Positions 4,917-64,000 of a stretch of DNA of 64,000 nucleotides are shown here, in pieces. Position 1 is the first letter of the stretch, and every line of letters starts with the position of its first letter. Source of the stretch: Eledone cirrhosa (Eukaryota); the NCBI GenBank assembly GCA_964016885.1, contig OZ024762.1, forward strand, positions 23,994,001-24,058,000. The letters are read 5' to 3'. A program made the position numbers and the translations under genes. The notes under the pieces are model-generated. The model made no database searches. It saw only the letters and a list, made by a program, of their open reading frames with translations, and was not told the origin of the DNA.

Positions 4917-5540
4917 ATAATAATGAAATTATTGTGTACAGTGCTCAGGTGCACTACAACTCATCAAAGGTGCATGTATAGTACATAGAATAATATACAA
5001 ATGTCAGGGAAGTGAATAGTGTATGAGTCATGATATACATGTGTGTATGTGTATGGAGGGGGAATATTAGGTGAAGTGTTGGCGAATCTCAGGAAGCATG
5101 GAGGTTTTAAAGGATGCAGTGTCTCGACAACTAATAACTGATGCAGGGAGTTTGTTCCATGGAGGTTTTAAAGGATGCAGTGTCTCGACAGCTAACAACT
5201 GATGAAGGTAGTTTGTTCCATGGAGGTTTTAAAGGATACAGTGACTCGACAGCTAAAAACTGATGCAGGGAGTTTGTTCCATGGAGGTTTTAAAGGATGC
5301 AGTGTCTCGACAGCTAACAACTGATGCAGGGAGTTTGTTCCATGGAGGTTTTAAAGGATGCAGTGTCTCGACAGCTAATAACTGATGCAGGGAGTTTGTT
5401 CCATGGAGGTTTTAAAGGATGCAGTGTCTCGACAGCTAATAACTGATGCAGGGAGTTTGTTCCATGGAGGTTTTAAAGGATGCAGTGTCTCGACAGCTAA
5501 AAACTGATGCAGGGAGTTTGTTCCATGCTTCAGCAACTCT
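4917..5540 (-). mobile_element. CR1-like LINE 3' end containing a 7x 61-bp tandem array (5097-5527)
   Basis: Minus strand encodes RVAEAWNKLPASV..CRDTASFKTSM, typical CR1 ORF2 C-terminus (WN.LP...FK). Confidence 0.75.
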
Positions 5541-5674
5541 AAACTCAGAGGAGGTGAGCTAAACATACATATGTAAACTTATAACAACATTAACAAGAAT
5601 AATGAGGTCCTTATTAAAATACTGGAAAAGTCTCTTAAAACATGCAATCTTATAAGAAGCCAGCAAAGTGCCTC

Positions 5675-5768
5675 GGTTGTTAGCTGTCAGGACACTGCAT
5701 CCTTCAAAACTTCCATGCTTCCTGAAATTCGCCAACATAACACCTGATATTCCCCCTCCATACACACA
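5675..5768 (+). mobile_element. CR1-like LINE 3' fragment, inverted relative to 4917-5540
   Basis: Reverse complement of ~5048-5140. Confidence 0.75.
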
Positions 5769-5789
5769 CGTGTAGGTAGATATCCAAAT

Positions 5790-6039: not shown

Positions 6040-6085
6040 TGGAATTAGATAGATAAATACATATATAGAGAGAGAGAGATAGATA

Positions 6086-6164
6086 TTGGGTCAAGTATGA
6101 AATTTGTAGAAATTTTGTTGTTTTTTTCCACAAATTTCTACAAATTTCATACTTGACGATCCAA
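6086..6164. mobile_element. ~80-bp Tc1/mariner-type fold-back MITE (second copy 17921-17997)
   Basis: TA|TTGGGTCAAGTATGAAATTTGTAG...CTACAAATTTCATACTTGACGATCCAA|TA. Confidence 0.75.
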
Positions 6165-6183
6165 TAGATATGTAGGTAGATAG

Positions 6184-9589: not shown

Positions 9590-9632
<43 letters not shown>

Positions 9633-9777
9633 AGAACAAAAGATGGTTAAAAGAGTTCCATGTATTTTATTATGTGCATTTCTTATATATTATGTATACT
9701 CCAGTCCTACAAACTGTAGAGTGCTTCTTATCCGATATCTGCATTGCTTTATTGTACTACAATAAAACTCACCTCCT

Positions 9778-9817
<40 letters not shown>

Positions 9818-10468: not shown

Positions 10469-10611
10469 ATATAAGCAAAAGGGATATTCAATTTGTTGGT
10501 AATTCAACAAATATAAATGTTTATAACTGATTTAGAGCACTCAACAAGTTTTCTGGAGTATAATATTCAATGATATTAAATAAATGGAAACTATATTTAT
10601 AAAACCATATT

Positions 10612-10670
10612 TATTCTATTACATATATTTCAATGGTACCAAAACTTTGGTACGCCCTCATCAGATAAAA
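10612..10670 (-). ncRNA. Type I hammerhead ribozyme motif, family A
   Basis: ttttat-CTGATGA-gggcgtacca aagttt tggtaccatt-GAAA-tatatg-TA-atagaa; stems I and II pair. Confidence 0.7.
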
Positions 10671-10874
10671 GTTTTTTTATAAATTTTAACATAACCAAGA
10701 AAAAGATAGCTTAACGGTTCAAGTTTTCCTTGGATATATATATAATAACAGATTAAGGGTTAAGCAAAGAATCGCTGCTTTCACCATTATAGGGATCTTC
10801 TGAAACTTTATATAAATATATATATAATCCTTATCGAGACATCTTCGGATTTTAGTCGTCACATTTAATATTAC

Positions 10875-13147: not shown

Positions 13148-13269
13148 AGCAGCGATTCTTTGCTTAAACTTTAATCTGTTATTTTAATAAATATATATAT
13201 ATATATATGTATATGTATATATATATATACAATATTAACAAATGGAAACTATATTTATAAAACCATATT

Positions 13270-13334
13270 TATTTCATTATACATATTTCAAGGACACCAA
13301 GTTAAATTATGGTGTGCTTTCATCAGATAAAATA
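13270..13334 (-). ncRNA. Type I hammerhead ribozyme motif, family A
   Basis: tattttat-CTGATGA-aagcacacca taatttaact tggtgtcctt-GAAA-tatgta-TA-atgaaata; lies between inverted arms 13232-13258 and 13404-13430. Confidence 0.75.
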
Positions 13335-13536
13335 TAATATAGAGCAGTTTTATAAATAAATATTGACATACCCTTAAAGAATGCGACCATTACTGTTGGA
13401 ATAATAAATATAGTTTCCATTTGTTAATATCGTATTTTTACTCCAATAATTTGTTGAGTGCTTTATATCAGTTATAAAAATATTTGCTTGTTGTATCCCA
13501 ACAATTTAAATAGAACTTCTACATATATATATATAT

Positions 13537-14400
13537 CATCATCATCATCGTTTAACGTCTGTCTTCCACGCTAGCATGGGTTAGATGGTTTTGTTCCATT
13601 TGATGTGGGAATGGTCGGGAGACCATGTCTCGCTTGTAGAGAAGGGTCTCTGGCAGGTGTTTTTACAGCCCTTCCTAACACCAATCACATTTACAGTGTA
13701 GACTGGGAGTCTTTTTACTGTGTCTCGTACACGGCCACCTTACAATGTGGACTGTTGTGTGATCGACAGTGCACGGAACAGAAAAGGCAGGACGGGGTAG
13801 GGTGTGTGGGGTGGGGTGTACATTGTGTTAAGAAGTGCCTACTGACTGTAGGTGAGCAAGGTCAGTTTTTATCACCTCATCACAAGTTTTTCTTGGTCTA
13901 CCCACTCCGTAGCTTCCATCAATTTTCATTGCCCCGAACTTTTTCATACAGCTGTCATCCTTCATACGCATCACATGACCATACCAATGCAATCTCCTCT
14001 CCAGAACACAATATTTGATACCTCTTATGCTTAGTCTCTCTCTCAATTCTTTTATGCTTCGCCGTTTGCACACATTACTATTACACAGCCATCGGAGCAT
14101 GCAAGCTTCGTTTCTTTCTAATCTACGCAAGTCTTCAGCACACAATGCCCAGGTCTCACTACCATGTAATATCGCCATTTGTATACAAGCATCATAAATG
14201 TGCCTTTCACTTTTAGAGAGAAACCCCTTCTGGCCAACAGTGGTATAAGCTCTCTGAACTTTTTCCATCCCATTCTAACTCTGGCTGCAACACTTTCAGA
14301 GCACCCTCCTCCACTGCTGATTTTGTCACCCAGGTAACGGAAAGTGTCTACTATTTCTATAGAACCATCTGGGCAGTTGAAGGAGATAGATTTGGCAGAA
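13537..14400 (-). mobile_element. RTE LINE 3' region (degenerate RT C-terminal domain and UTR)
   Basis: FRYLG, LHGSETW, RRLHWYGHVMRM, GRPRKT motifs; (GAT)n tail. Confidence 0.9.
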
Positions 14401-16086: not shown

Positions 16087-16343
16087 ATAATATATAAGAT
16101 CAAAAGATGGTTAAATGAGTTCCATGTATTTTATTATGCGCATTTCAAAAAAAAATATCATCATGCAATAACATTTGTGTTTTCATCAGATAAAATAGGA
16201 AGACATGATATGAAGGTTAAAAACACTTGTGGATAGTGTAGTTTTAAATCAACAAATGTTATTGCATGATGATATTTGTTTTTGAAATGCGCATAATAAA
16301 ATACATGGAACTCATTTAACTATCTTTTGATCTTATATATTAT
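16087..16343. repeat. Fold-back inverted repeat (~90-bp arms, ~70-bp spacer with partial CTGATGA motif)
   Basis: ataatatataagatcaaaagatggttaaatgagttccatg... mirrored; collapsed relative at 9630-9780. Confidence 0.85.
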
Positions 16344-16468
16344 GTATAGTCCAGTCCTACAAACTGTAGAGTGCTTCTTATCCGATATCTGCATTGCTTT
16401 ATTGTACTACTACAATAAAACTCACCTCCTATATATATATATATATATATATACTCATAATCAAAATA

Positions 16469-16538
16469 TATGCTTTATTATATATATTTCAAAGGTACTG
16501 TGTTGTTTTTTCAGTACGTCCTCATCAGACAAAATATA
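16469..16538 (-). ncRNA. Type I hammerhead ribozyme motif, family A variant
   Basis: Mirror image of 16649-16718. Confidence 0.7.
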
Positions 16539-16648
16539 TGGTTTGATATATGACATACCGCTACGGTCTTGATTATTCAATTCCAGTATTGGTAGTAATA
16601 CTGGAATTGAATAATCAAGACTGTAGTGTTATGTCATATATCAAATCA

Positions 16649-16718
16649 TATATTTTGTCTGATGAGGACGTACTGAAAAAACAACACAGTACCTTTGAAA
16701 TATATATAATAAAGTATA
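16649..16718 (+). ncRNA. Type I hammerhead ribozyme motif, family A variant
   Basis: tatattttgt-CTGATGA-ggacgtactg aaaaaacaaca cagtaccttt-GAAA-tatata-TA-ataaagtata. Confidence 0.75.
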
Positions 16719-16859
16719 TATTTTGATTATGAGAATATTTTTCATTTGTTAATATTTTGAATAATATTCAAAACTCCAGCAAAACCAACTGTTGAGTGCT
16801 TCTAATCTATTGTAAAATTGTATTCATTGAGTAATCAACGAACCACACTAATCTTTGGT

Positions 16860-16944
<85 letters not shown>

Positions 16945-18439
16945 ATATGTGTATATATGTGTGCGTGTGTGTGTATATATACAATATATATATATATACA
17001 ATATATATATATGTATATATATGTATATATACAATATATATATATGTATATATACAATATATATATGTATATATACAATATATATATATGTATATATATG
17101 TATATATACAATATATATATATGTATATATATATATACAATATATGTTTATGTATGTACAGATACACAAACATACATACATTCACACACTCATATACAAA
17201 CACACAAACACACACTCATATACAAACACACACACTCATATACAAACACAAACACACACTCATATACAAACACACACACTCATATACAAACACACAAACT
17301 CATATACAAATGCACACACTCATATACAAACGCACACACTCATATACAAACGCACACACTCATATACAAATGCACACACTCATATACAAATGTACACACT
17401 CATATACAAATGCACACACTCATATACAAACGCACACACTCATATACAAACACACACACTCATATACAAACACACACTCATATACAAACACACAAACTCA
17501 TATACAAATGCACACACTCATATACAAACACACACACTCATATACAAACACACACACTCATATACAAACACACACACTCATATACAAACACACACTCATA
17601 TACAAACACACAAACACATATACAAACACACAAACACACATATACAAACACACACACACATATACAAACACACACACTCATATACAAACACACACACTCA
17701 TATACAAACACACACACATACACAGGCTCATATACAAACACAAACAAACACACATGTAGAACAAATGAATTTATTGATGCTGAAATCTGTAGAATGGTCC
17801 ACTGTAGAGAACTTCACAGAGAATATTGTTACAAAAAGATAGAGTAGACTTGTTTCATGAACAATTACTGTGTTTATAATAAACAAGACACACGTGTGTG
17901 TGTGTATATATGTATATATATTGGGTCAAGTATGAAATTTGTAGTGAGGCATTAACAAACTTTGTTGTTTCTACAAATTTCATATTTGACGACCTAATAT
18001 ATACAGGGTGTCCAAAAAAAAAATGCATATACACTTCAACAGCATTCTAATAAATATTGTGTATACATACACACATATATATATATATGTGTGTGTGTGT
18101 ATATATGTACATATATATATACATATATATAAATATATATATGTACATATATATATATATATATATGTGTGTGTGTATATGTACATATATATATACATAT
18201 ATATAAATATATATATGTACATATATATATATATATACTTACATACATATATATACATATATATATACATATATTTATACATATATATATGTATATGTAT
18301 ATATATGTATATACATATATATATATATACATACATACATACATATATGCATATATGCATATATACACACACATTTTTTTGAATTTTTTGTGAGTTTTTT
18401 TTCTCAAATTTTTTTTCGAATTTGCTATATTGTTTATTT

Positions 18440-19525: not shown

Positions 19526-19562
<37 letters not shown>

Positions 19563-19564
<2 letters not shown>

Positions 19565-19715
19565 AGAAAGATTTGGGGCCCGACAGCTGAGCTCCTGCCA
19601 CTTTTATAGCTAGTTTCAAAATGTTTGGAAGTCTGGAATTAGCTGTCAAACCAGCAAGAGCTCAGCTGTCGGGTCCCGAACTCTTACTAATATAGTCACA
19701 CTCTACTATCCCAAA
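19563..19715. repeat. Dispersed hairpin repeat family D (near-identical copy 20620-20775; relatives ~21455, ~37080-37240, ~61030-61180)
   Basis: ggggcccgacagctgagctc...gagctcagctgtcgggtccc. Confidence 0.8.
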
Positions 19716-19721
19716 CATTTT

Positions 19722-19772
<51 letters not shown>

Positions 19773-19967
19773 ATTATCGAGAATCGGAATCTCGGCCCAC
19801 GAAATAACGAAACACAATCTTCGAAATGCGTGGCAAAGGGCTCAATAGTTTGGATAAACCAGAGCTATAACTAACGTTTAAGTACCAACACATAGAGACA
19901 ATGCTTAAAATCATTCGCACAGCCGACAAAACGACCAGGAAAATTCGGGTCATACAAATAATAAATT

Positions 19968-20003
<36 letters not shown>

Positions 20004-20078
20004 TTTACGTCCGCTTCTCCCTGCTTGCAAGGGTGGGACGGGAACTAGCTATAAAATTAAATGAATGAAAAATCTTAC

Positions 20079-20160
20079 CTGGACCCGCTAGAGGAACGAT
20101 CGACTTTCGTCACATCGGACCGAGGGAACAAAGTTTCCGTTGGTCTTTCCAATTGCTAAT
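20079..20160 (-). other. Candidate 5' non-coding exon
   Basis: Strong donor CAG|GTAAGA, CpG-containing unique sequence upstream of the 15623-15765 exon; 5' end unknown. Confidence 0.25.
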
Positions 20161-20189
20161 ACTATCTATCGGTCGCAACTCCAGGTAGA

Positions 20190-20305
20190 AGGAGCAACGT
20201 GAAATAAAGTGTCTTGCTCAAGGACATAACGCATCGCCTGGTCCAGGAATCGAACTCACAACCTTACGATTGTGAATCCAATTCTCTAACCACTCAGCCA
20301 CACGC
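20190..20305 (-). mobile_element. CORE-type tRNA SINE 5' part
   Basis: TGGCTGAGTGG A box, GAGTTCGATTCC B box, tgtccttgagcaagacacttta CORE-like. Confidence 0.8.
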
Positions 20306-20584
20306 TAGAAGGATGTTAAATTCTAGGTTTTTGGTTTCTGCGGTTCCTAAATCAGTTACCGTCAGCTTTCATAAAAAATATCTGACTTCTGGTAAAATGA
20401 TGAACGAGGAAACCACTTTCTCAACAGGCATTTCGTTCAAAAATACAAAGGCACCCGTTACTAAATCCATGTGGGGTCTAGCAAGGGAGGGAACCCCTAT
20501 ATTAGGCGAATGAATTCAGTAGTGTATATATTTGTAAAACTACAAAATATCACATATCGAATTAGAGTTCTCAACAGACGGGTT

Positions 20585-20621
<37 letters not shown>

Positions 20622-20833
20622 AGAAAGATTTGGGGCTCGACAGCTGAGCTCCTGCCACTTTTATAGCTAGTTTCAAAATGTTTGGAAGTCTGGAATTAGC
20701 TGTCAAACTAGCAAGAGCTCAGCTGTCAGGGCCCCGAACTCTTACTAATATAGTCACACTCTACTATCCCAAATATCGAGTACTCTGATGAATAATGGTC
20801 TAACTCGTTTAGTTCTGGTTTAATCCTGATATA

Positions 20834-20874
<41 letters not shown>

Positions 20875-20932
20875 GTTTATCTCGGGTTCACTTGGGGGTA
20901 ACTACAGTAAGGTACTCAATACAGAGCAGAGT

Positions 20933-21273
20933 CATCATCATCATCATTTCATTTTACGTCCACTTTTCCCTGCTTGCAAGGGTGGGACGGGAACTGATTC
21001 TGGCTTGATTTCTACAGCTGGATGCCCTTCCTAACACCAACCTCATTTACAGTGAGTGCTGGGTGCTTTTTTGCCGTGGCACCTCCACGACCACTTTGCA
21101 GTGGAATGATAGGGACCCCAGTCCCTATCATCTCATTTCTACAGCTGAGTAAACTGGAGCAATGTGAAATAAAGTGTCTTGCTCAAGGAAACAACACATC
21201 ACCCGGTCTGAGAATTGAACTCACAACCTTTCGAATGCAAGGCCAATGCTCTAACCACTAAGCCATGTGCCTC
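20933..21273 (-). mobile_element. Full-length CORE-type SINE with RTE-like 3' tail
   Basis: tRNA head, CORE, gaagggcatccagc tail, (GAT)n; TSD cagagt at 20927-20932 and 21274-21279; inserted in a family-B element. Confidence 0.85.
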
Positions 21274-21622
21274 CAGAGTATAAATATTTAATATAAAAAT
21301 GGCTTCTACAGGACTAGAACTGTTTCATTCGGAAGAAATCATCAACAGTCCCGTAGAAGCCATTATATTAAATATAAAATATATATAAATATATATATAT
21401 GCCTTGCCTAAGTACAAAGCGAAGCCTACAGTCAGTAGGCACCTCTTAACCAAAAAAGATTCAAGACCCCGACGGCTGAGCTCCGGCCGTTTCCACAGCT
21501 ACTTCCCCAAGTATTGAGTACTCTGGTGGGTTATGGTCCACCTGGTATTTTACCACACCCTATCTGATATATATATATATATATATGTGTGTGTGTTTAT
21601 GTGTGTGTGTGTATGACCTGGG

Positions 21623-36760: not shown

Positions 36761-37344
36761 TAACGACGAAAAAAATCAACTCCCGTCACGTGCTAACGAC
36801 AGTTTCACAACGAAGTCATTAAAACTGCTAGAAATAGCAGCCTAATCTCTCTTCTGTTTTAGAAAAAGATGTTAGATAACAAAGACGTCATCACCACCTT
36901 CACTACCACCATTATCATCATCACCAACAACATCTTAATTGCTTTAACCCTTTCGTTATCATATTTTTAATGAAAGACTGCCTGTGGGTATTCAAAAAAT
37001 GTTGAATATTATCAAGAATTTTGAAAGATTTAATTAATCTTTAATCTATCTTTCGCATTATTAATCAGATAAGGTGTGGTAAAAACCAGGTAGACCATAA
37101 CCCACCAGAGTACTCGATACTTGGGGTAGTAGAGTGGGTAATATGAAAAGATTCAGGATCCCGGCGGCTGAGCTCCGAGTTCGGGTATAGCTGTCGAAAT
37201 GGCCGGAGCTCAGCCGTCGGGGTCCTGAATCTTTTCCATATTTCGCATTATTAAGCTACTGGCTGTATTGAACATAACTAAGCTTCTAATATATAATTTA
37301 TAACGGAAAGTTTTTAGATAAATATAAACACTTTAGTATAAACA

Positions 37345-42746: not shown

Positions 42747-42962
42747 ATATATTTAGTCAGTTTCTACATGCTGTCGAAATGTTGGATAAATACTCGACTG
42801 AGGCCGCCGCGAAGAGGCTACGTTCGGTTATTTGTCGGAGATTTCTCCATAAGAGCATTTATTCTTATAGCTTGTTCTAATTGTTTTTTTATATGGTTAA
42901 TTATGCTAATTAGAAGAAGAAATAGTATATATTTTATCTGATGATTCTAAAGACATGATTTA

Positions 42963-43039: not shown

Positions 43040-43530
43040 TGCCTTTGCTCACTATAAAAGCTTCACGGCACAGGCACTGCTTTATATCTGGAGATCTCTC
43101 TGCACTTGTCGTCACATGGTACAATGGGCCCAGCACTATGTGTCAATAATTGTCACAAGTGTAGTGTTTGTACCAGAGTTTTCAAGTCGCTGGCTGGACT
43201 AAAAAGTCACACTTGTTCAGCACATCGGTAGGGGTTCTCCTACATGGATATAAAGTAGTGGCCGTACTCGAAAACGAGTTGGCAGCCACCATATATGTGT
43301 GTGTGTTGATTGCAACTTCTTGTCAGAAGAGTGCCATCCCTTCATTGAACATTTGACGATCATGTGCACGCAGGTATGTTGACAGATGTCACACTTGAAC
43401 TGTCTGGCCCCTGGCAATACTGGCTAGGGTCTGTCTTTATGCATTCTACCATGTCTGCCCAGTTCACCCGCTGACTTGCAAATGAAGCCACACTCACTGC
43501 AAATGTACTGAGGAGTGTGTGGCGGTAGAA
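43038..43530 (-). mobile_element. Dispersed repeat, probably a LINE 3' end with decayed C2H2 fingers (UTR copy at 51645-52050, plus strand)
   Basis: CSECGFICKSAGELGRHGRMH and FKCDIC motifs with stops/frameshifts; downstream ~250 bp repeated inverted at 51645-51900. Confidence 0.55.
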
Positions 43531-45534
43531 CCCCCTTATATATATATATATATATGTATGTATATGTGTGTGTGTGTGTGTATGTATATATAATTGTTTC
43601 TACTTTTGGCACAAGGCCAGCAAATACCCAGTACATTACTGGTACTTTATTTTATCGACCCCGTAAAGATGAAAGGCAAAGTTAACCTCGGTGGGATTTG
43701 AACTCAGAATGGCAAGGGCCTGTATATCATGTGTGTGTAAAAGGTAAACAGAAATAACAACACAAACGGTACAGTATATGGAAGCAATATATTAGTTTAA
43801 TGCTTGAAATAGCAGGAAGAGGGTCCTACCGTTTTGGATGCTAGTCTTTCATCAGAAAAAAGGAGGAGAAATTAGAAAGATTGAGAGGACTGGCAGGGCG
43901 GAAACGGATGTATATATTTAATATAGAAATGGCTTCTACAAGACTAGAACTGTTTCATTTGGGAGAAATCATCAGGAACTTCGCTTGAACCCGGGATAAA
44001 CATATATATATGTGTATGGGCGTTGTTAAATTGATAGATTGACTATGAAGGAGTGACGCTTGAGCTATGAAATCTCTTCTTATTAGTGACAGCATTGCTT
44101 CTTCACAGGGACTATGTAGAGAAATGAACCTCATTTGGTCATTCCATGAGAGTATCTTAGTCAGCCTATAAACTTTTTCGTCGACCCTCATTTATAACAT
44201 TTTATTATCATTATTATTTTTTACAGTTTTGTTTTTTAAATTTTATTTTCTCGGAAAGTCTTTTTTTAAAAATTATTATTCAAAATACTTTAGTAATCTA
44301 CATAATTAGTGTAAAGAAATTAGTCTTTTAATCAATGTCTTGCTGCTGTGCTTGAGGGTATGTTATATTTTCACAAGATTATTAGTTTTGGCTGTCTAGA
44401 GTTAAAAGACAAAATTTCAACAAAAAATTAAACCAAAAATCACAAAATACTTTAGTTCATAAGCAACCATCTTTTGAAAAGATATGTCTCAGTGATAAAT
44501 ATTTCATATAATGATTTTAAAAATACTTGACTACAACTTCGATCTCAAATGTTTATATATATAGATATATATATATATACACACACGCGCGCATATACAC
44601 ACGTACACGCATATATACACGTACACGCATATATATATACACAACGCATTGCACTGCATCACCACCACTACCATCGCTGCACCATTTCGAACTAAACTAC
44701 ACCACACTTACACATGACGGCACAAACCACTTCACTACACCACACCACACCACACTTACACATCACGGCACAAACCACCACACTACACCACACCACACCA
44801 CACTTACACATCACGGCACAAACCACACCACACTACATCACACACATCAATATACAGACACAGCATACTACACTACACCGCTCCACACCTCACTATATAC
44901 TACACAAACCTAACCACGTCACAGTATTGAACCTATCCACACAAAACTTCACAACACTAAAGCACTCACACACACACTACACAACATACCACACACCACT
45001 ACACTACATCACACCACACTAAACTATACCATACTACATAGCACACACTACTACACTACATCACACCACACTAAACGATACCATACTACACACAACACAC
45101 CGCTACACTACATTACACCACACACAACACACCACTACACTACATCACATCACCACATACACACCAACACACCACACCACACGCACACATGCACTCACAC
45201 ACTATTTATATTTGTCCCTCTATATTATATTACAGTATATATATACATACACAGAAAAAGAAAGGGTGAAAAAGACACACACACAATTTTAAAATCCCCG
45301 CGATATCCCCTCCTCCAATATCTGTGTAAGGGTGGTAAATACGTTACAATAGTTAAATGAGAGTTACAGCCCTTGCATTATACCTCTTTAGTTTGGCCCA
45401 AAACTCACTCTGTCACTTCGTAACTCTCTTTCTCTCTATCTAAATATCTCTTTCTTTCTGTTACTGATATTTCTGTGTTTCTTAGTCCGTCTATGTGTAC
45501 GGTTTGTGTGTAGTCTGTCTGTATGTGTGTGTAA

Positions 45535-46520
45535 TACTAGTAGAATATAGTTTAAAGACTGGAGACGTGTGTGTTTACTGTGTGTGTGTGTGTAATACTA
45601 GTTGAATATAGTTTAAAGAATGGAGACGTGTGTGTTTGTGTAATACTAGTTGAATATAGTTTAAAGACTGGAGACGTGTGTGTTTACTGTGTGTGTGTCT
45701 GTGTAATATTAGTTGAATATAGTTTAAAGACTGGAGACGTGTGTGTGTAATATTAGTTGGGTAAAGTACAAGGTGTTCCCCCAAAATGTATACACAATTC
45801 AACAGCATTCTAATAAATATGTATACATTTTGGGGGGACACCCTGTAGTCTAAAGGCTGGAGACGTGTGTGTGTAATACTAGTTGAATATACAGGGTGTC
45901 CCCAAAAATGTATACACACTTCAACAACATTCTAATAAAGGTGTATACATTTTGGGGGGACACCCTGTAGTTTAAAAACTGGAGACGTGTGTGAGTGTGT
46001 GTAATACTATTTGTGATATAGTTTAAAGACTGGAGATGTGTGTAATATTAGTTGAATATAGTTGAAAGACTAGAGATGTGTGTGTGTTTAGTGTGTTTAC
46101 TGTGTGTAATGCTGGCTGAATATACAAGGTGTCCCAAAAAATGTGTACACAATTCAACAGCATTTTCATAAATATGTGTATACATTTTGCGGGGACATCC
46201 TGTAGTTTAAAGACTAGAGTCGTGTGTTTGTTTGTGTGTGTGTGTAATACTATTTGTGATATAGTTCAGAAATTGGAGATGTGTGTGTAATGATATTTGT
46301 GATATAGTTTATAGACCGGAGATGTGTGTGTTTTTAGTGTGTTTACTGTGTTTGTGTGTGTGTAATACTATTAGTAATATAGTTTAGAACGGGCATGTTT
46401 AACATGCCTGGTTTAGAGGCTGGAGATGTGAATGTGATACTAATGGTGATATAGTTTAAAACCTGGGGATGTGTGTGTGTGTGTGAAACTAGTTGTAATA
46501 TAGTTTAGAGGCTGGACATG
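45535..46520. repeat. Degenerate satellite (gtaatactagttgaatatagtttaaagactggagac + (TG)n) with three inserted CAGGGTGTCCC Tc1/mariner MITEs
   Basis: TA|CAGGGTGTCCCC...GGGGACACCCTG|TA at 45892-45967, also ~45769-45845 and ~46124-46202; further copies ~18004 and ~55691. Confidence 0.8.
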
Positions 46521-46704
46521 CATGAAAGTATCCGAAACGGGAAGACTCTCTTCCTACTATTTCAAGCATTAAACTAATATATTCCTTCCATGTACTGTTT
46601 TGTTATTTTTGTTTACCTTTTATATACAGACACACACACATATACATACATATATATATTCATATATATATATATATATTCATATATTTATAGATATATA
46701 TGAA

Positions 46705-47580
46705 TATCTTAGTCTTAGATTCTTCCGCACTGTTCAGTGCACCGAGCAGTAAGTACTCGCCAATGGTCACGATCTGCGGCAACCTTTTCGAGACCGTGCC
46801 AGGTGTTGTTGGCTGCCATCAGGTCCTTCCGGAATGCTCGTCGCTAGGTCTTCTCATATTATTTAAGGGCGGTGGATTGGCAGTATCGGTAGAAGGTTAC
46901 CACCAGCGGAGTCCAGTTCATCGCTGTTTTCGAATGCCGTTCATTTGGCAGATGCAGAATATGGCCAGCGTCCACAACTCGGTTCTCAGCAGGATCTCCT
47001 CGTGTCACACTCGGTCGCCCCAAGACACACGAAGGATCTTTTGTAGGCACCGCTGGTGGAAAACATTCAGCCCTCTCTCTATTTTTGCCGTACTCTTCCA
47101 GGTCTCGCTCGCATAAAGCACTGTCGGCAGCACGATGGTCTTGTACAGGCGGAGCTAGGTCTTGGTGCTAATGCATGAAGACGACCAGACTGGACACAGC
47201 CGCTGTAAAACTGCGGCTCCTCTGCCGATCCGTCAGTTGATGTTGAGCTCCGCATCGCCGCTGCTTGTCAGGATGCTGTCCAGATAGGTGAAGTGATCGA
47301 CTTCCTCGAGGTCCTGTTGGTTGACTCTGATCACTGGACCTGTGTTGCTGGCCGTTCTCATGACCTTCGTCTTTTTCGTGTTGATTCTCAGGCCGATCTT
47401 TTCCGCCCTCTCTTGTAGGGAAGTTGTTAGGGTCTGCAGATCTGCACTGTTTTCAGCGACCAAAGCGATGTCGTCGACGAATGCCAGGTCCCTCAGCCTC
47501 GACTGCCCTCTCCATGGGATTCCTCGACCGGGTCCTTCATCCATTCGCCTTAGTACGAAATTGGTTGCCAGCAGGAACAA
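46705..47580 (-). mobile_element. GC-rich RTE-clade LINE 3' fragment with RT core
   Basis: LFLLA..FV...LRDLAFVDDIAL...GLRINTKKTKVM...FTYL; (CTAAGA)n tail. Confidence 0.9.
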
Positions 47581-47617
47581 CAGTATATATATGCATGCAT
47601 ATGTGTGTGCGTGTGTG

Positions 47618-47672
<55 letters not shown>

Positions 47673-47755
47673 GTTTATCCCGGGTTCAATCGGGGGTAAC
47701 CACAGTAAGTAAGGTACTCAATACATAGCAGAGTATAAATGTTTAATATAGAAAT

Positions 47756-47806
47756 GGCTTCTACAGGACTAGAACTGTTTCATTTGGGAGAATTCATCAG
47801 GAAGCC
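47756..47806 (-). ncRNA. Type I hammerhead ribozyme motif, family B (intact)
   Basis: ggcttc-CTGATGA-att ctccca aat-GAAA-cag ttctagtc ctg-TA-gaagcc; left arm of a palindrome ~47745-47862. Confidence 0.7.
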
Positions 47807-47861
47807 CTGATGATTTCTCCCGAATGAAACAGTTCTAGTCCTGTAGAAGCCATTTCTATAT

Positions 47862-47895
<34 letters not shown>

Positions 47896-52598: not shown

Positions 52599-52804
52599 GT
52601 GTGTGCGTATTCGTGAATGAATAATAGCATAACATTATTAATATTCAGTTTGTTTACAAGTAAACAGCCTCATAAAACACCATGTGGTAGATGACATCAT
52701 ATATATATGTATATCAAATGAATATAATTAACCACGTTTAAATTAGATTAAATTATTTAATTGATTTACAAATGTTTCTATCAATACAGTAAGAAGTTCC
52801 ATTT

Positions 52805-53783
52805 TTTGTGAACACCAACTTTTACACTAAATTCATCACAATATTCATTGTTAATTCTAACCTTACTGACTGTTTCATTATACATAGCTTGTATAGCTCT
52901 CACAAGCCATTCATCTACACCTAGTTTTCTAAGAGCCCACCAGATAATGGAGCGGGGGACTCTGTCAAAGGCTTTTTCCAGGTCTACAAAAGCTAAGTAG
53001 AGGGGTTTACTTTTAGCTAGGTACTTCTCTTGTAGTTGTTGTACAAGGAAAAGAGTGTCTGTGGTACCTGACACAAACCCAAACTGCATTTCATCTAGAT
53101 CAATTTGCTCTCTGATTAGTTGCGCTATAACTCTTTCTGTGACCTTCATGACCTGGTCAACTAACTTAATGCCTCTATAGTTTCCTCTATCTAGAGCATC
53201 TCTTTAACCCTTGTAGCAGTTAATGATGATGCTGCTACGCCAGTCTTTTGGTATGACCCCATTCTGTATTACTTGGTTAACTATATGGGTGACCATAGTA
53301 TGTCCCACCATTCCAGATGCCTTCAACATCTCAGCAACTATCTCTGAAGGCTCAGCTGCCTTGCCTGTCTTCATATCTTTGATTGCCTTACTTTTTATAC
53401 TACCTTTAACTTGCACCGCTGGTCCTTCTATTGGATCAATTTGGGGCAGACTCTTTTTCCCACTTATTCTTCTCATTTAATAGTCTCTCGTAGTGACACT
53501 TCCAGGCTATCTTCTTATCGGCATCAGTGAGGGCAAGTACACCGTTATCATTACGGACCCACTTCTCCCCGACAATATCATGGTTTTCCTTGACACATTG
53601 TCTAGCAATCCTGAACACCTCACGTTTTTGGTCCTCACGTTGTAGAACATGCTTGAACTTTCTATCCTCTGCTTCCCTTTTTGCAAGGTACACTTGTCTC
53701 CTAGCTTTTCTCCTGGCCACTTGATAGTGCTCTCTACTTCCCCCATCCTACCATACTTTCCAAGCCTGCTTTTTGGCCTTGAT
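52805..53783 (-). pseudogene. RTE LINE ORF fragment, RT N-terminal region, frameshifted
   Basis: KGDALDRGNYRGIKL, QFGF, FVDLEKAFDRVPR, WALRKLGV, VGVH motifs split over frames. Confidence 0.9.
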
Positions 53784-54359
53784 TATATATATATGTGTGT
53801 GTGTGTGTGAGTCTGTCTTCAATCTCTCTATTTCGTCTTTAATTTCTCATTCTATCTTCTGATGAAGGCGTCTGAAACATTAAGACTCTCTTCCTGCCAT
53901 TTCAAGCGGTAAACTAGAATATTCTCTCCATCTACTACACCGTTTGTAAATAATTTAATGTAATTTAATCCTGGTTATTTTTATTCAATTTATATATGCT
54001 CTGTGATATGAAAGTACTGTGATTGGAAATTTACCAATTGGATTAAACTGTGAACTGTCTTGTACCTATCGTGCTGTGGATTATAAAATCGTGTTTGAGC
54101 TTTGAATTATTCTTTGCCTTTATATGGTTGTGTTATCAATTATTGTCAACTCGTCTAAACTTCTATATCATCATCATCACTGTTTTACGTCCATTCTTCC
54201 ATGCTAGCCTGGGTTGCATGGGTTGTCCTGTTGTGGGCGGGCAGTGCCAGGTTGGGTGACCCTATCATGCCCATACGGGAACTGATTTTGGCTTGACTTC
54301 TACAGCTGGATGCCCTTCCTAACACCAACCTCATTTACAGTGAGTGCTTATATATATAT

Positions 54360-57430: not shown

Positions 57431-57547
57431 CATCGCCTCCATGATAATAATAATAATAATAATAATAATAGTTATACTTTGGGAGGGTCATGCTGCCAAT
57501 AATAATAATGTTTAAACCACAAGGGTTGACACAAAGTATAACATTAA

Positions 57548-59730
57548 GGACAACACAGGACGGTACAGGAGGGTACAGGACAGCTCAGGAGGGTACAGGA
57601 CAGCACAAGATGGTACAGGCGGTGCAGGACAGCTCAGGACAGCACAGGACAGCACAGGAGGGTACAGGACAGCACAGGAGGGTACAGGACAGCACAGGAG
57701 GGTACATGACAGCACAGGACGGTACAGGACAGCACAGGACGGTACAGGACAGCACAGGAGGGTACAGGACAGCACAGGAGGGTACAGGACAGCTCAGGAT
57801 GGTACAGGACAGCACAGGATGGTACAGGACAGGAGGGTACAGGACAGCACAGGAGGGTACAGGACAGCACAAGATGGTACAGGCGGTGCAGGACAGCTCA
57901 GGACAGCACAGGACAGCACAGGAGGGTACAGGACAGCTCAGGACAGCACAGGACAGCACAGGAGGGTACAGGACAGCACAGGAGGGTACAGGACAGCACA
58001 GGAGGGTAAAGGACAGCACTGGAGGGTACAGCACAGGAGGGTACAGGACAGCACAGGAGGGTACAGGACAGCACAGGAGGGTACAGGACAGCACAGGAGG
58101 GTACAGGACAGCACTGGAGGGTACAGGACAGCACAGGAGGGTACAGGACAGCACAGGAGGGTACAGGACAGCACAGGAGGGTACAGGACAGCACTGGAGG
58201 GTACAGGACAGCACTGGAGGGTACAGGACAGCACTGGAGGGTATAGGACAGCACAGGAGGGTACAGGACAGCACTGGAGGGTACAGGACAGCACAGGAGG
58301 GTACAGGACAGCACTGGAGGGTATAGGACAGCACTGGAGGGTACAGGACAGCACAGGAGGGTACAGGACAGCACTGGAGGGTACAGGACAGCACAGGAGG
58401 GTACAGGACAGCACTGGAGGGTACAGGACAGCACAGGAGGGTACAGGACGGCACAGGAGGGTAAAGGACACCACAGGAGGGTACAGGACAGCACTGGAGG
58501 GTACAGGACAGCAGATGAGGGTATAGGACAGTACAGGAGGGTACAGGACAGCACAGAAGGGTACAGGACAGCACAGGATGGTACAGGACAGCACAGGAGG
58601 GTACAGGACAGCACAGGAGGGTACAGGTCAGCACAGGAGGGTACAGGACAGCACAGGAGGGTACAGGACGGCACAGGAGGGTACAGGACACCACAGGAGG
58701 GTACAGGACAGCACTGGAGGGTACAGGACAGCACAGGAGGGTACAGGACAGCAGATGAGGGTACAGGACAGTACAGGAGGGTACAGGACAGCACAGGATG
58801 GTACAGGACAGCACAGGATGGTACAGGACAGCACAGGATGGTACAGGACAGCACAGGAGGGTACAGGACAGCAGATGAGGGTACAGGACAGTACAGGAGG
58901 GTACAGGACAGCACAGGAGGGTACAGGACAGCATAGGAGGGTACAGGACAGCACAGGATGGTACAGGACAGCACAGGAGGGTACAGGACAGCACAGGAGG
59001 GTACAGGACAGCACAGGATGGTACAGGACAGCACAGGAGGGTACAGGACAGCAGATGAGGGTACAGGACAGTACAGGAGGGTACAGGACAGCACAGGAGG
59101 GTACAGGACAGCATAGGAGGGTACAGGACAGCACAGGAGGGTACAGGACAGCAGATGAGGGTACAGGACAGTACAGGAGGGTACAGGACAGCACAGGATG
59201 GTACAGGACAGCACAGGAGGGTACAGGACAGCACAGGAGGGTACAGGACAGCAGATGAGGGTACAGGACAGTACAGGAGGGTACAGGACAGCACAGGATG
59301 GTACAGGACAGCACAGGAGGGTACAGGACAGCACAGGAGGGTACAGGACAGCAGATGAGGGTATAGGACAGTACAGGAGGGTACAGGACAGCACAGGATG
59401 GTACAGGACAGCACAGGAGGGTACAGGACAGCACAGGACGGTGCAGGACAGCACAGGAGGGTACAGGACAGCACAGGAGGGTACAGGACAGCAGATGAGG
59501 GTACAGGACAGTACAGGAGGGTACAGGACAGCACAGGATGGTACAGGACAGCACAGGAGGGTACAGGACAGCACAGGAGGGTACAGGACAGCAGATGAGG
59601 GTACAGGACAGTACAGGAGGGTACAGGACAGCACAGGATGGTACAGGACAGCACAGGAGGGTACAGGACAGCACAGGACGGTGCAGGACAGCACAGGAGG
59701 GTACAGGACAGCACTGGAGGGTACAGGACG
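57548..59730. repeat. 20-bp minisatellite, more than 100 copies, with higher-order variants
   Basis: Unit ggacagcacaggagggtaca; recurring gcagatgagg/gtacagg/ggatgg variants. Confidence 0.95.
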
Positions 59731-60328: not shown

Positions 60329-60845
60329 TATATATACATATATACATATATATGTGTGTGTATATATATATATATATTGGTGGTGGTTGTGGTGGGGTTA
60401 GTGATGGTGGTGGCTCTAACGATGGTATTGCCTGTGGTGGGAGTTTTGGTCGGGGGTGGGGGATGTTGGTAGTGATGGTAGTAATGGTGGGGTCTGGTGG
60501 TGGTGGGTAATTTGGGGTGGTGATAGAGATGATAACAGTGGCAGTGATGGTGGTGGTGTTGGGTGTGGTGATCGCACTCACACACACACACGCGCACACA
60601 TACACACACACACACACCAAAGAACCACCAACACCACTGCATACCAAAAGACTATAATTTAATGCTAACAAGATGGTTGAAGAATCTTGAGATTCTGCTT
60701 CCAAAGTTGATTGACCCACCCACTATCCCTACCATACACACTCTCTCTCTCGCTCTCTCTATATATATATATATATGTATATACAATCACACATATATAC
60801 ACACACACACATACATACACACACATATATATATATATATATATA

Positions 60846-60924
60846 AATGGCTTGCACAAGACTAGAACTGTTTCATTCAATGGAAATCATCAATGAAACA
60901 GTTCTAGTCCTGTAGAAGCCATTT
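60846..60924. repeat. Family-B palindrome, collapsed
   Basis: aatggctt..actagaactgtttcatt...aatgaaacagttctagt..aagccatt. Confidence 0.75.
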
Positions 60925-61181
60925 CTATAATAAATCTTGTATATACTCGACTATGTATTGACTACCTTACTTACTATGGTTACCCCTGATTGATATATAT
61001 ATTGATTTATATTATAACATGAAGGAAGTGTGGTAAGTAACCAGGTGGACCATAACTCACCAAAGTACTCAATACTGGGTAGTAGAGTGGGTAATGGGAA
61101 AAGTGTCAGGACCCCGACGGCTGAGCTCCGGCCATTTCGACAGCTAGATCTGAACAGTTCAGTCGGGGTCCTGACTCTTTT

Positions 61182-61224
<43 letters not shown>

Positions 61225-61250
61225 ATGTAATAAACAACATAAGGCAATTA

Positions 61251-61310
61251 TTCCATTTACCAGTGGTTTCTTAAAAGCAAAAGATTTTGCTTTCAATCCT
61301 CAGAATGAAA
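61251..61310 (-). ncRNA. Type I hammerhead ribozyme motif, family E
   Basis: Mirror of 61333-61392. Confidence 0.7.
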
Positions 61311-61332
61311 AAATCCTGGTCGACCAGGATTT

Positions 61333-61392
61333 TTTCATTCTGAGGATTGAAAGCAAAATCTTTTGCTTTTAAGAAACCACTGGTAAATGGAA
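61333..61392 (+). ncRNA. Type I hammerhead ribozyme motif, family E
   Basis: tttcatt-CTGAGGA-ttgaaagcaaaa tc ttttgcttttaa-GAAA-cc act gg-TA-aatggaa. Confidence 0.75.
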
Positions 61393-61617
61393 TAATTGCC
61401 TTATGTTGTTTATTACATAATAATAATTAAGCTCTGTTACCTACATAGAGCACTCTTTTTTCCTGGACTTTTCCGACGGAATTACTTCATGGTCTATTCA
61501 ATTTGTTGGTAATTCAACAAATATATATTTATAACAGATTCGAAGCACTCAACTGGTTTTCTGGAGTATAATATCAATGATATTAATAAATGGAAAGTAT
61601 ATTTATAAAACCATATT

Positions 61618-61678
61618 TATTCTATTATATATATTTCAAGGGTACCAAAACTTTGGTACGCTCTCATCAGATAAAATA
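61618..61678 (-). ncRNA. Type I hammerhead ribozyme motif, family A
   Basis: tattttat-CTGATGA-gagcgtacca aagttt tggtaccctt-GAAA-tatata-TA-atagaata; left arm of palindrome 61613-61867. Confidence 0.75.
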
Positions 61679-61801
61679 CAAAGTTTGTTTTATAAATAGT
61701 GACATATCCAGGAAGGAGATCGTAACGGTTCAAGTTCCATTTCAACTTGAACCGTTAAGGTCTCATTCCTGGGTATGTCAATATTTATAAAACAAATTTT
61801 G

Positions 61802-61862
61802 TATTTTATCTGATGAAAGCGTACCAAAGTTTTGGTACCCTTGAAATATATATAATAGAATA
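61802..61862 (+). ncRNA. Type I hammerhead ribozyme motif, family A
   Basis: tattttat-CTGATGA-aagcgtacca aagttt tggtaccctt-GAAA-tatata-TA-atagaata. Confidence 0.8.
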
Positions 61863-61919
61863 AATATATATATATATATGGAGGAAGTTATAGTTCACTT
61901 GAAGCATTGTGTAATGAGG

Positions 61920-62179
61920 TATAAACGTTTGTATATGTATAATAAAGCCAAAACAATGCAGGTATGGACATAGAATAATGACTTGGCAAGCTATTTAGAA
62001 CACTGGTTTAACCGCTTTACTTCCCTCCGAAGAAGAGATATTATCTCGAAAATTAAGGACATTTAAATAAATCTAAGGTAAAAGACTAATTGTCAACAAT
62101 ATCTTTTGCATTTGCATTCTTTATTCTATGTCCATACCTGCATTGTTTTGGCTTTATTATACATATACAAACGTTTATA
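61920..62179. repeat. Inverted repeat (59-bp perfect arms, ~140-bp spacer with degenerate hammerhead-like motif)
   Basis: tataaacgtttgtatatgt...tagaataa mirrored at 62121-62179; spacer cct-CCGAAGA-agagatattatctc-GAAA-at-TA-agg. Confidence 0.85.
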
Positions 62180-62631
62180 TATATATATATACACATATAC
62201 ACAGAGTGCAGCATCTTTTCACACATTGTGATTCTTTGTTATCTCCTCTGTGAGTCTCAGTGATTTGAGATCAGCTCTCACAACCTCTGCCCACATCTTT
62301 CTTGGTCTTCCTCTACTGCAGCTTCCTTCCACTGGCACTTTTTGTTCAAACTGGCCATAACTGGCTGCTCAAATTGATGTTCAGGTATTATTCTAAAAAT
62401 AAATAGTATCAAAATCTCATGGATTTGATATTATGTGCGATAAGTATGTGAGATAATGCCTTTACCGTGAAAATATAATAGTAAATATAATGTAAATACT
62501 ATGTGATATTATGTGAGGTATTTTGTGAGTTAAAGCCTTTACCGTGAAAATATAATAGTAAATATAGAGTAATGTAAATGTTATGTGGGATATGTGAGTT
62601 AAAGCCTTTGCCTTGAAAATATAATAGTATA

Positions 62632-63340
62632 CGCAGACTGGAAAGGAATGAAGCATGCATGCTCCGTTGGATGTGTAATAGTTATATACGTGAACGGCAA
62701 AGCATAAATGAACTAAGTGAGAAATTAGGAATAAGAGGGATCAGATGCTGTTTACTTGAGAGAAGACTACGTTGGTATGGCCACGTGATGCGCATGAAAG
62801 ACGACAGCTTTATAAAAAAGTGCAGGGCGATCAAAATTGATGGTAGTTACGGAGTAGGTAAACCCAGAAAAACTTGGGACGATTTGATAAATTCCGACCT
62901 TACACACTTGCACCTCTCTAAGACAATATCACTGGACCGAGATCTTTGGCGCTACGCAGTATTACAGAAGACCCGCCTTGCCTATGTACAAAGCGAAACC
63001 TACAGTCAGTAGGTACCTCTTAACTAAATATACACCCCAATCCACCCACTCCCACCAACACCACCCTCTCTCTGTAAAGTAGGTACCACAGCATCCAGTT
63101 CAAATAAATGAGATTATGAGATCGAGATCGTGTAGGTGTCACGACAAAAGAAAAAAAAAAAACACACAGTCCACGCTGTAATGTGGCCGTGTAGGTAACA
63201 TGGTAAAAAGTTCCCAGTTCCACACTGTAAACGTGGTTGGTGTTAGGAAGGGCATCCAGCCGTAGAAAACCTGCCAGATAGTCCTATATGACCGAGACAC
63301 GGTCACAAGATGGTCGTTAAACGAAGATGATGATGATGAT
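62632..63340 (+). mobile_element. RTE LINE 3' end, inserted into piggyBac-like MITE/array
   Basis: ERNEACMLRWMC...RRLRWYGHVMRM...GKPRKTW; (GAT)n tail. Confidence 0.9.
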
Positions 63341-63869
63341 ATAGAGTAATGTAAATGTTATGTGAGATATTATGTGAGGCAAAGCCTTTACTGTGAAAAT
63401 ACAATAGTATATATAGAGTAATGTAAATGCTATGTGAGATATTATGTGAGGTAAAGCCTTTACTGTGAAAATACAATAGTATATATAGAGTAATGTAAAT
63501 GTTATGTGAGATATTATGTGAGGTAAAGCCTTTACTGTGACAATACAATAGTATATATAGAGTAATGTAAATGTTATGTGAGATATTATGTGAGGTAAAG
63601 CCTTTACCGTGAAAATACAATAGTATATATAGAGTAATGTAAATGTTATGTGAGATATTATGTGGGGTAAAGCCTTTACCGTGAAAATACAATAGTATAT
63701 ATAGAGTAATGTAAATGTTATGTGAGATATTATGTGGGGTAAAGCTTTTACCGTGAAAATACAATAGTATATATAAAGTAATGTAAATGTTATGTGAGAT
63801 ATTATGTGAGGTAAAGCCTTTACCGTGAAAATACAATAGTATATATAGAGTAATGTAAATGCTAAAGGA
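63341..63869. repeat. 7x 72-bp array from the right end of the piggyBac-like MITE
   Basis: Unit matches ~4815-4880; array ends with TIR TAAATGCTAAAGGA|TTAA; MITE body begins ~62340. Confidence 0.85.
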
Positions 63870-64000
63870 TTAAATCCAGTTTCAAATATATACTGTTTTA
63901 GCATAAAATATTTGTGATTTGTAAATTAATAAATGATTTTCCTATTCTATAATTAAATAATAATAATTTGTTTATCTATCTATTTATTTATTTATTTATC

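Follow-up and report, generated by a model that had tools for sequence, protein, structure and literature searches.

The cluster at positions 60846–62179 of the window, the whole 64-kb stretch of DNA analysed, is best read from its sequence as a group of ORF-less insertions of Hydra-type Penelope-like elements (PLEs), in which the palindrome is built at each insertion. Elements of this kind have an asymmetric anatomy, copy-specific centres, TA flanks and hammerhead ribozyme motifs, and one of them is enclosed as a whole unit by a 14-bp target duplication. The cluster is real and largely of a known kind: hammerhead palindromes are an expected product of PLE insertion, and it is therefore not a new class of RNA element. 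New here is a bulged hairpin found across unalignable families and across phyla; this and the possible existence of short master elements are the part worth following.

The four unrelated inverted repeats listed in a preliminary description were recovered at their positions. A fifth, family X, was added between families B and E, as were the tails that extend beyond the palindromes (Table 1). No two of the five long arms can be aligned (the lowest shuffle p among 14 different-family pairs is 0.03). From left to right, the elements are B, X, E, A and D, the tail being on the right in B and E and on the left in X, A and D; little besides TA tracts separates them, and the tails of A and E abut. 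About 22 elements of this kind were counted in the window, and families B and X are represented by 8 copies or fragments and by 5 copies, respectively. Neighbouring elements are also found elsewhere (16082 and 16449; 19527–21560), and the occurrence of five centres within 1160 bp has a post hoc P of ~0.009 under uniform placement. In contigs of four public runs, which derive from a single study with no more than two samples, perhaps the source of the window itself, and in which depth does not equal copy number, all five families are clearly highly repeated; none of these contigs spans the whole cluster. The cluster is preceded by a long 20-bp G-rich satellite (57500–59730) and followed by a 59-bp tandem array (63340–63870). 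A ~100-nt inverted repeat enclosing a 61-bp tandem array is located at 5045–5769.

Table 1. Features of the 60846–62179 cluster. Positions are those of the window; motifs on the minus strand are read in that sense.
Feature	Position	Strand	Remarks
Family B insertion	60846–60993	+	inverted repeat 60840–60929, 81% identity; short inverted arm 60846–~60892 (− sense); long arm + sense; tail up to 60993
B long-arm ribozyme remnant	60895–60914	+	GAAA-helix III-GUA site, without CUGANGA
B tail hairpin	60945–60963	+	broken at 60949 and 60962 in cluster copy
Family X insertion	61027–61186	−	inverted repeat 61095–61186; tail 61027–~61094; long arm − sense; short arm ~61162–61186
X long-arm hammerhead 3' half	61138–61116	−	GAAA to GUC
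X tail hairpin	61067–61088	−	intact
Family E insertion	61218–61493	+	perfect palindrome 61218–61425, arms 104 + 104 nt, 100% identical; long-arm tail 61426–~61493
E long-arm complete type I hammerhead motif	61333–61392	+	predicted cut after 61385
E short-arm hammerhead motif	61251–61310	−	identical to long-arm motif; predicted cut after 61258
E tail hairpin	61431–61451	+	compensatory outer pair (G-C for A-U)
Family A insertion	61494–61867	−	inverted repeat 61601–61736/61744–61879, arms 91% identical; tail 61494–~61612, tail-to-tail with E; long arm − sense; short arm 61744–61867, + sense
A tail hairpin	61547–61567	−	inner stem broken in cluster copy, fails descriptor here
A long-arm complete hammerhead motif	61618–61678	−	predicted cut after 61626
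A short-arm complete hammerhead motif	61802–61862	+	predicted cut after 61854
Family D insertion	61880–62179	−	40-nt tail 61880–61919; arms 61920–61981 and 62118–62179, 98% identical; spacer 136 nt; no shared-type tail hairpin
D-spacer degenerate hammerhead-like motif	62024–62058	+	U4 is C, stem II with G-C base, 3-bp stem I (by eye)
(TA)n tract between X and E	61187–61217		
Shorter TA tracts	60826–60845, 60994–61002, 61868–61879, from 62180		

A type I hammerhead descriptor gave nine matches in the window from 27 CUGANGA sites, compared with a mean of 0.03 (maximum 1) in 100 shuffles. Four of the nine correspond to E and A, each of which has a complete hammerhead on either strand, and the plus-strand cut sites are those proposed earlier; the remaining matches map at 16473–16534, 16648–16719, 16127–16197, 13270–13334 and 47756–47806. 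A stricter scan caught E alone, because stem II of A is mismatched after 3 pairs. The 47756–47806 match belongs to family B and features a 6-bp stem I, a short stem II with a U.U pair, a 4-bp helix III and a GUA site. Among 13 B arms, four keep CUGANGA, 10 keep the half from GAAA to GUA, and one is complete. The B copy of the cluster and the D core had rightly been called degenerate. The former has lost CUGANGA on both arms, and the D spacer (62027–62051) features CCGAAGA, stem II and GAAA, with a stem I of just 3 bp by eye, and was missed by both descriptors. Only the 3' half of the motif is found in X, the CUGANGA half being absent from all five window copies. Confirmation by the Rfam models, to which the preliminary description had looked, was not obtained: no hammerhead was found among 81 matches to E = 10 in 60700–62300, or among the 150 of 292 window matches listed, and in both cases only unspecific miRNA-hairpin matches were obtained.

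The best-preserved B element (47665–47873) carries on its minus strand the complete hammerhead at 47756–47806, for which a monomer fold is predicted. Further elements of the A group (A, A2 and A3) are located at 9618–9778, 10475–10735, 13225–13490, 16088–16428, 16449–16861 and 42917–42950; these have the A-type hammerhead layout and the tail hairpin, but differ in stem II and in the palindromes of helix III. Three copies of another repeat (53850–53940, plus strand; 43760–43875, minus strand; 46522–46596, plus strand), in which CUGAUGA is accompanied by a very short stem II and by letters resembling GAAA, possibly represent a different, non-palindromic family of minimal hammerheads.

Among the 40 of 150 variants listed for the contigs of the four public runs, none touches the invariant bases of the hammerhead core. 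The listed E variants fall on N7, on loop II, on the hairpin loop and on one pair, changed from G.U to A-U. Stem II of A has three listed variants (61658, 61659 and 61663), two of which could not be paired up. Helix III self-complementarity is not significant in any single family (p 0.06–0.40). In folding predictions for A and A2, the best fold is more stable than the hammerhead fold by 3.6–6.4 kcal/mol, and no double hammerhead results for the dimer; the isolated E arm is predicted to dimerize in a form resembling a double hammerhead, and stem I is retained in the intact B arm (0.96). For all full palindromes, the ribozyme fold is excluded in prediction (stem I probability < 1e-47), in support of the earlier proposal that a read-through RNA would form a long dsRNA competing with the ribozyme. 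Such an RNA may be a substrate of ADAR or Dicer.

Every element is larger than its palindrome. A long arm, consisting of the hammerhead, a 3' extension and an unpaired tail of 40–74 nt followed by (TA)n, is joined to an inverted, shorter arm, and the tail is restricted to one arm in 15/15 pairs compared. The tail measures 40 nt in D and 62–89 nt from the hairpin in the other families. By eye, no open reading frame runs through the tails, and no ORF start was seen in them. In one X element (37065–37242), tail, long arm and short arm are framed together by a 14-bp direct repeat (37051–37064/37241–37254), which indicates that the asymmetric unit results from one insertion event. A target duplication is visible only in this one of 20 elements; within TA tracts, including those at all five cluster elements, a duplication would not be discernible. 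The preference for (TA)n that had been suggested is borne out, as at least one end lies no more than 10 nt from a TA tract of four or more repeats in 18/20 mapped elements, compared with 9.7% of all positions, an enrichment inflated by the fact that ends were partly drawn where TA begins. The X element at 37065–37242 is one of the two exceptions.

The preliminary description had regarded the palindromes as fixed, bidirectional elements, a view that the arrangement of the centres does not support. The seven two-armed B copies have seven different centres, and all their junction sequences differ. In the contigs of the four public runs, the summed depth over A is 2.6 million close to the cut but only ~430 at the centre, which makes the latter private to this copy; the E tail is covered as deeply as the E arms, and the D spacer and tail are also deeply covered. 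It is very improbable that the palindrome itself is the mobile unit, a bidirectional cassette with ribozymes that would be transcribed and copied in its entirety. Such a cassette would account for the complete hammerheads that E, A and A2 have on either strand, and for the common centre of the X copies at 19527 and 20616, but these two copies are 1.1 kb apart and may have arisen by local duplication. Tails are one-sided, single-armed copies exist (10607), and RNA of the whole palindrome is predicted to exclude the ribozyme fold.

Short fold-backs in a TA context are typical of Tc1/mariner MITEs, and symmetric fold-backs do occur in the window (6084–6166 and 17911–18005). That the cluster consists of MITE-like DNA transposons, or of hairpin repeats with hammerhead letters present by chance, is nevertheless scarcely credible in view of nine hammerheads against 0.03 by chance, asymmetric ends, variable centres, the 14-bp duplication and a tail hairpin also found in PLE consensi. 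Symmetric terminal inverted repeats, a constant interior and a short fixed duplication, the hallmarks of MITEs, were not observed in these elements. The fold-backs at 6084–6166, 17911–18005 and 45762–46209 are tail-less, have TA ends, contrast with the PLE stubs, and resemble Tc1/mariner MITEs.

The positions at which the arms start, relative to the cut, were compared in the B copies. The short/long values are −36/−6, −37/−8, −41/−35, −41/+70, −39/−44, −41/−34 and −37/−22; these are BLAST ends, uncertain by a few nt, and the −37/−8 copy has a full tail on neither arm. The furthest-reaching arm ends at −36 to −44 in all seven B copies. Among the A-group copies that reach the 5' side of the hammerhead, five have this end at −104 to −125. 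Loose ends upstream of B in the contigs of the four public runs agree poorly past the core. This 5' wall suggests either that the templates are short or that copying is strongly halted at the ribozyme.

The clustering of the furthest B 5' ends at the first hammerhead stems is also what might be expected from the main rival account of the second arm. According to this, the insertion is the same, but the inverted arm derives from fold-back self-priming of cDNA or of an antisense template, rather than from a second start on the other target strand. Head-to-head junction palindromes are read in this manner in Arkhipova 2013 (PMC3846280), and the E centre is perfect and lacks a spacer. Self-priming is nonetheless unlikely. 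In several copies, the short arm extends further 5' than the long arm, with little or no overlap (B at 43900, −41 vs +70; X at 21440, −30 vs +31). Within a single insertion, the two arms can differ by as much as 9% or more, and those of X at 20616 resemble two subfamilies. Moreover, two start sites on both strands have been shown in vitro for another PLE (PMC11167929).

Families B, X and E and the A group, although unalignable, feature a common bulged hairpin where the tail begins. The layout is RCUC, an inner stem of 3–4 bp, a loop often rich in A and C, a 2-nt bulge, and GAGY-RCU, located 28–65 nt past the cut and 62–89 nt ahead of the tail end. The hairpin is present at 11/18 sites chosen by the 3' motif alone, versus 0.44 expected; of the seven failing sites, five lie in element copies that are damaged or truncated, one is a passing site read on the opposite strand, and one is unrelated. 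Inner pairs vary between families with pairing kept (U-A/C-G; G.U/A-U/G-C; C-G/G.U/A-U/G-C/U-A), and the outer pair is A-U or G-C. Thus, one outer and all three inner pairs change type, a covariation seen in eight related representatives and hence given without a formal statistic. Pairs were counted by descriptor, because a MAFFT alignment of the tails lost the structure. At the breaks found in the cluster (60949 and 60962 in B, 61554 in A), the majority letter in the contigs of the four public runs restores the motif. Only about half of 18 tails have the hairpin as their fold of lowest energy, and the D tail has no hairpin of the shared type. An extra match at 19865, with a G-C outer pair, falls in a stretch (19760–19960, minus strand) without hammerhead and without a second window copy, which probably represents a sixth family, cut off by the end of a LINE.

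The hairpin likely marks where copying starts. The short arm stops upstream of it in 14/14 hairpin-bearing pairs among the 15 pairs compared (about four further two-armed copies lie outside the comparison). The distance between the end of the short arm and the hairpin is at most ~12 nt in 11 pairs and ~20, 35 and 44 nt in the other three, and short-arm ends always lie in AT-rich sequence merging into the flank. Neither the tail hairpin nor the window families were found described in the text of the open-access papers and preprints searched.

The same hairpin connects the window to the Hydra clade of EN+ PLEs (Craig et al. 2021, PMC8557442). Within the 583,898 characters of the supplement searched, a 9-nt half of the E hairpin has two matches, both at Hydra-clade consensus termini, and two other variants of the hairpin half gave one internal non-Hydra match and none, respectively. 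By eye, the full hairpin is found at an end of 3/6 new autonomous Hydra consensi, and partial forms are found in the other three (Hydra-1_Crog, Hydra-1_Amil and Hydra-1_Obim). In Hydra-2_Amil and Hydra-2_Ajap, the full hairpin is at the 3' end, ~40 nt past the hammerhead, and the inner stems, of 5 and 4 bp, differ in sequence. In Hydra-1_Ajap, it is at the 5' start, ~110 nt before the ATG, and the 3' end is AT-rich at the hairpin point, like a short arm. The hairpin as a Hydra marker is a criterion of this analysis rather than a published one, and 21 Repbase Hydra families lie outside the comparison. The passages of PMC8557442 on these elements do not mention a hairpin.

Other features agree. 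(TA)n is the target preferred by 26/27 listed Hydra families, a type I hammerhead lies near their 3' end, and the clade, which occurs in molluscs, has an Octopus bimaculoides member; Naiad elements likewise insert at (TA)n (PMC8557442). The repeat style of the window would suit an octopus host. Helix III is palindromic in the Hydra clade, with ACAG/CUGU in several elements, as in B, and ACCA/UGGU in Hydra-1_Obim, as in E; the 8-nt palindromes of the A group are absent from the motifs listed. A U.U pair is often found at the base of stem II, as in B, and Penelope-13_HM features an inverted 5'-truncated copy like those of the window. Beyond helix III, no likeness of any window family to Hydra-1_Obim was seen by eye. 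An 11-nt stretch found ~60 nt upstream of the A core (61744–61757 and 10725–10712) also occurs ~80 nt upstream of the Hydra-1_Amil core, which may be due to chance. In contrast to Hydra elements, which are 2–3 kb long, window units measure 140–400 bp and are ORF-less; stem II is longer in A and E, loop III is longer in B and X, and window tails are 62–89 nt long.

A derivation from PLEs of another clade (Neptune or Penelope/Poseidon), with a hairpin that is PLE-wide or convergent, is quite unlikely. Neptune elements also favour microsatellites (PMC8557442), D lacks the hairpin, and the stubs carry no PLE protein and were compared with Hydra consensus ends, Neptune and Penelope ends lying outside the comparison. 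Yet both matches of the 9-nt half fell at Hydra termini, where the other variants had none, and the helix III letters and (TA)n agree with Hydra. We considered D as a Naiad end, but the 3' end of Naiad_Obim is unlike D by eye. Since the Hydra clade is defined by protein motifs (RWK, DKT, a CxCX5C linker, no CCHH) and by RT phylogeny (PMC8557442), the stubs, which have no ORF, are filed as Hydra-like and not as members.

A scan of the window's 310 complex frames, covering the 150 longest, gave no PLE domain. Two RVT_1 matches were obtained, one with AP-endonuclease-bearing relatives and the other RTE-like by eye; both look like AP-endonuclease LINEs and were rejected as remains of an autonomous PLE. 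Broken LINE RT fragments are located at 47236–47685 and 52784–53203 (minus strand), 13575–14274 and 62617–63009, and one has relatives that carry AP-endonuclease and PHD domains. A frame at 43427–43651 (minus strand) has a weak C2H2 zinc-finger match (E 3e-5, below the Pfam cut-off), and a second finger-like stretch follows past the stop. Motif scans for families B and X gave no matches in metagenome and viral contig collections. The earlier attribution to PLE-type hammerheads of several families without ORF is supported, and it is plausible that the window elements are non-autonomous.

The window elements share with the minimal PLE hammerheads of metazoans (Cervera and de la Pena 2014, PMC4209133) the type I layout and a weak, palindromic helix III suited to dimers. 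Pairs of minimal hammerheads on opposite strands, 100–700 bp apart, are ascribed there to truncated PLEs, and many families are reported per genome. In contrast to these motifs, A, B and E lack the G10.1-C11.1 pair, and helix III of B is a 4-bp stem predicted to be able to form in the monomer. A typical PLE insertion consists of a direct pLTR, an inverted shorter pLTR, a one-sided tail and a TSD of 8–10 bp (PMC3846280; PMC11167929), and inverted 5'-truncated copies with a one-sided tail have been published (PMC8557442; PMC3846280). Head-to-head inverted ends, a one-sided tail, AT-rich targets and a stem-loop at the start region are common to typical PLE units and window elements, and a target duplication is seen in one of the latter. 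However, the typical tail is ~30–40 bp long and falls within the ORF start (PMC3846280, PMC11167929), whereas window tails are longer and, by eye, lack an open frame.

Non-LTR retrozymes (PMC7229834; bioRxiv 10.64898/2026.07.22.740005) are likewise short, ORF-less hammerhead repeats, proposed to be non-autonomous PLE derivatives. They form head-to-tail tandems yielding circles, whereas window elements lie scattered, as single arms or as arms joined head to head; no tandem of hammerhead-bearing units in head-to-tail order was found among them. The available text of Li et al. 2026 (bioRxiv 10.64898/2026.07.22.740005) does not mention palindromes, tails, stems or octopus, and hammerheads and palindromes are unmentioned in the two papers of the octopus repeat literature searched.

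We consider it probable that each palindrome is one short ORF-less insertion, made up of an end with hammerhead motif and tail and of an inverted tail-less copy, and laid by a Hydra-clade PLE enzyme that cuts both strands of a (TA)n target and copies one RNA twice from two starts. The PLE protein would bind the hairpin, which would act as a protein-binding or start-site signal. One target strand would start copying 60–90 nt downstream of the hairpin, giving the long arm, and the other would start immediately upstream, within an AU-rich stretch, probably through base pairing to the TA target, giving the short arm. Both copies would stop early and then join head to head. The tail may be non-coding because it would correspond to the 5' UTR in Hydra elements. 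Flanking TA would survive and draw the next insertion, leading to the chain of five. The ribozyme would be part of the parent RNA, where its dimer likely serves to process tandem precursors; in the palindrome, it would be a mere passenger. For an anole PLE protein, cleavage and extension of the two strands of AT-rich DNA have been shown in vitro, with two internal start sites in a stem-loop region and the tail in between, and hammerhead cleavage is dispensable (Frangieh et al. 2024, PMC11167929). How PLEs choose two start sites and make inverted copies is described as an open question in both Craig 2021 (PMC8557442) and Frangieh 2024 (PMC11167929).

More tentatively, Hydra-type PLE proteins might load on the bulged hairpin RCUC-stem-loop-stem-UW-GAGY-RCU as a clade-wide cis signal setting the two copying starts. 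The genome might then host a zoo of non-autonomous masters of 140–300 nt with fixed 5' ends, composed of hammerhead and hairpin and comparable to PLE 'SINEs', and each insertion would build a fresh palindrome, seeding very many dsRNA-forming loci. The hairpin, kept by unalignable window families and by Hydra elements of coral and sea cucumber, provides a defined 20-nt target for mutation. It may also serve as a marker for ORF-less Hydra derivatives missed by protein-based annotation, and the hairpins formed de novo would be candidate substrates for A-to-I editing, if the host is a cephalopod.
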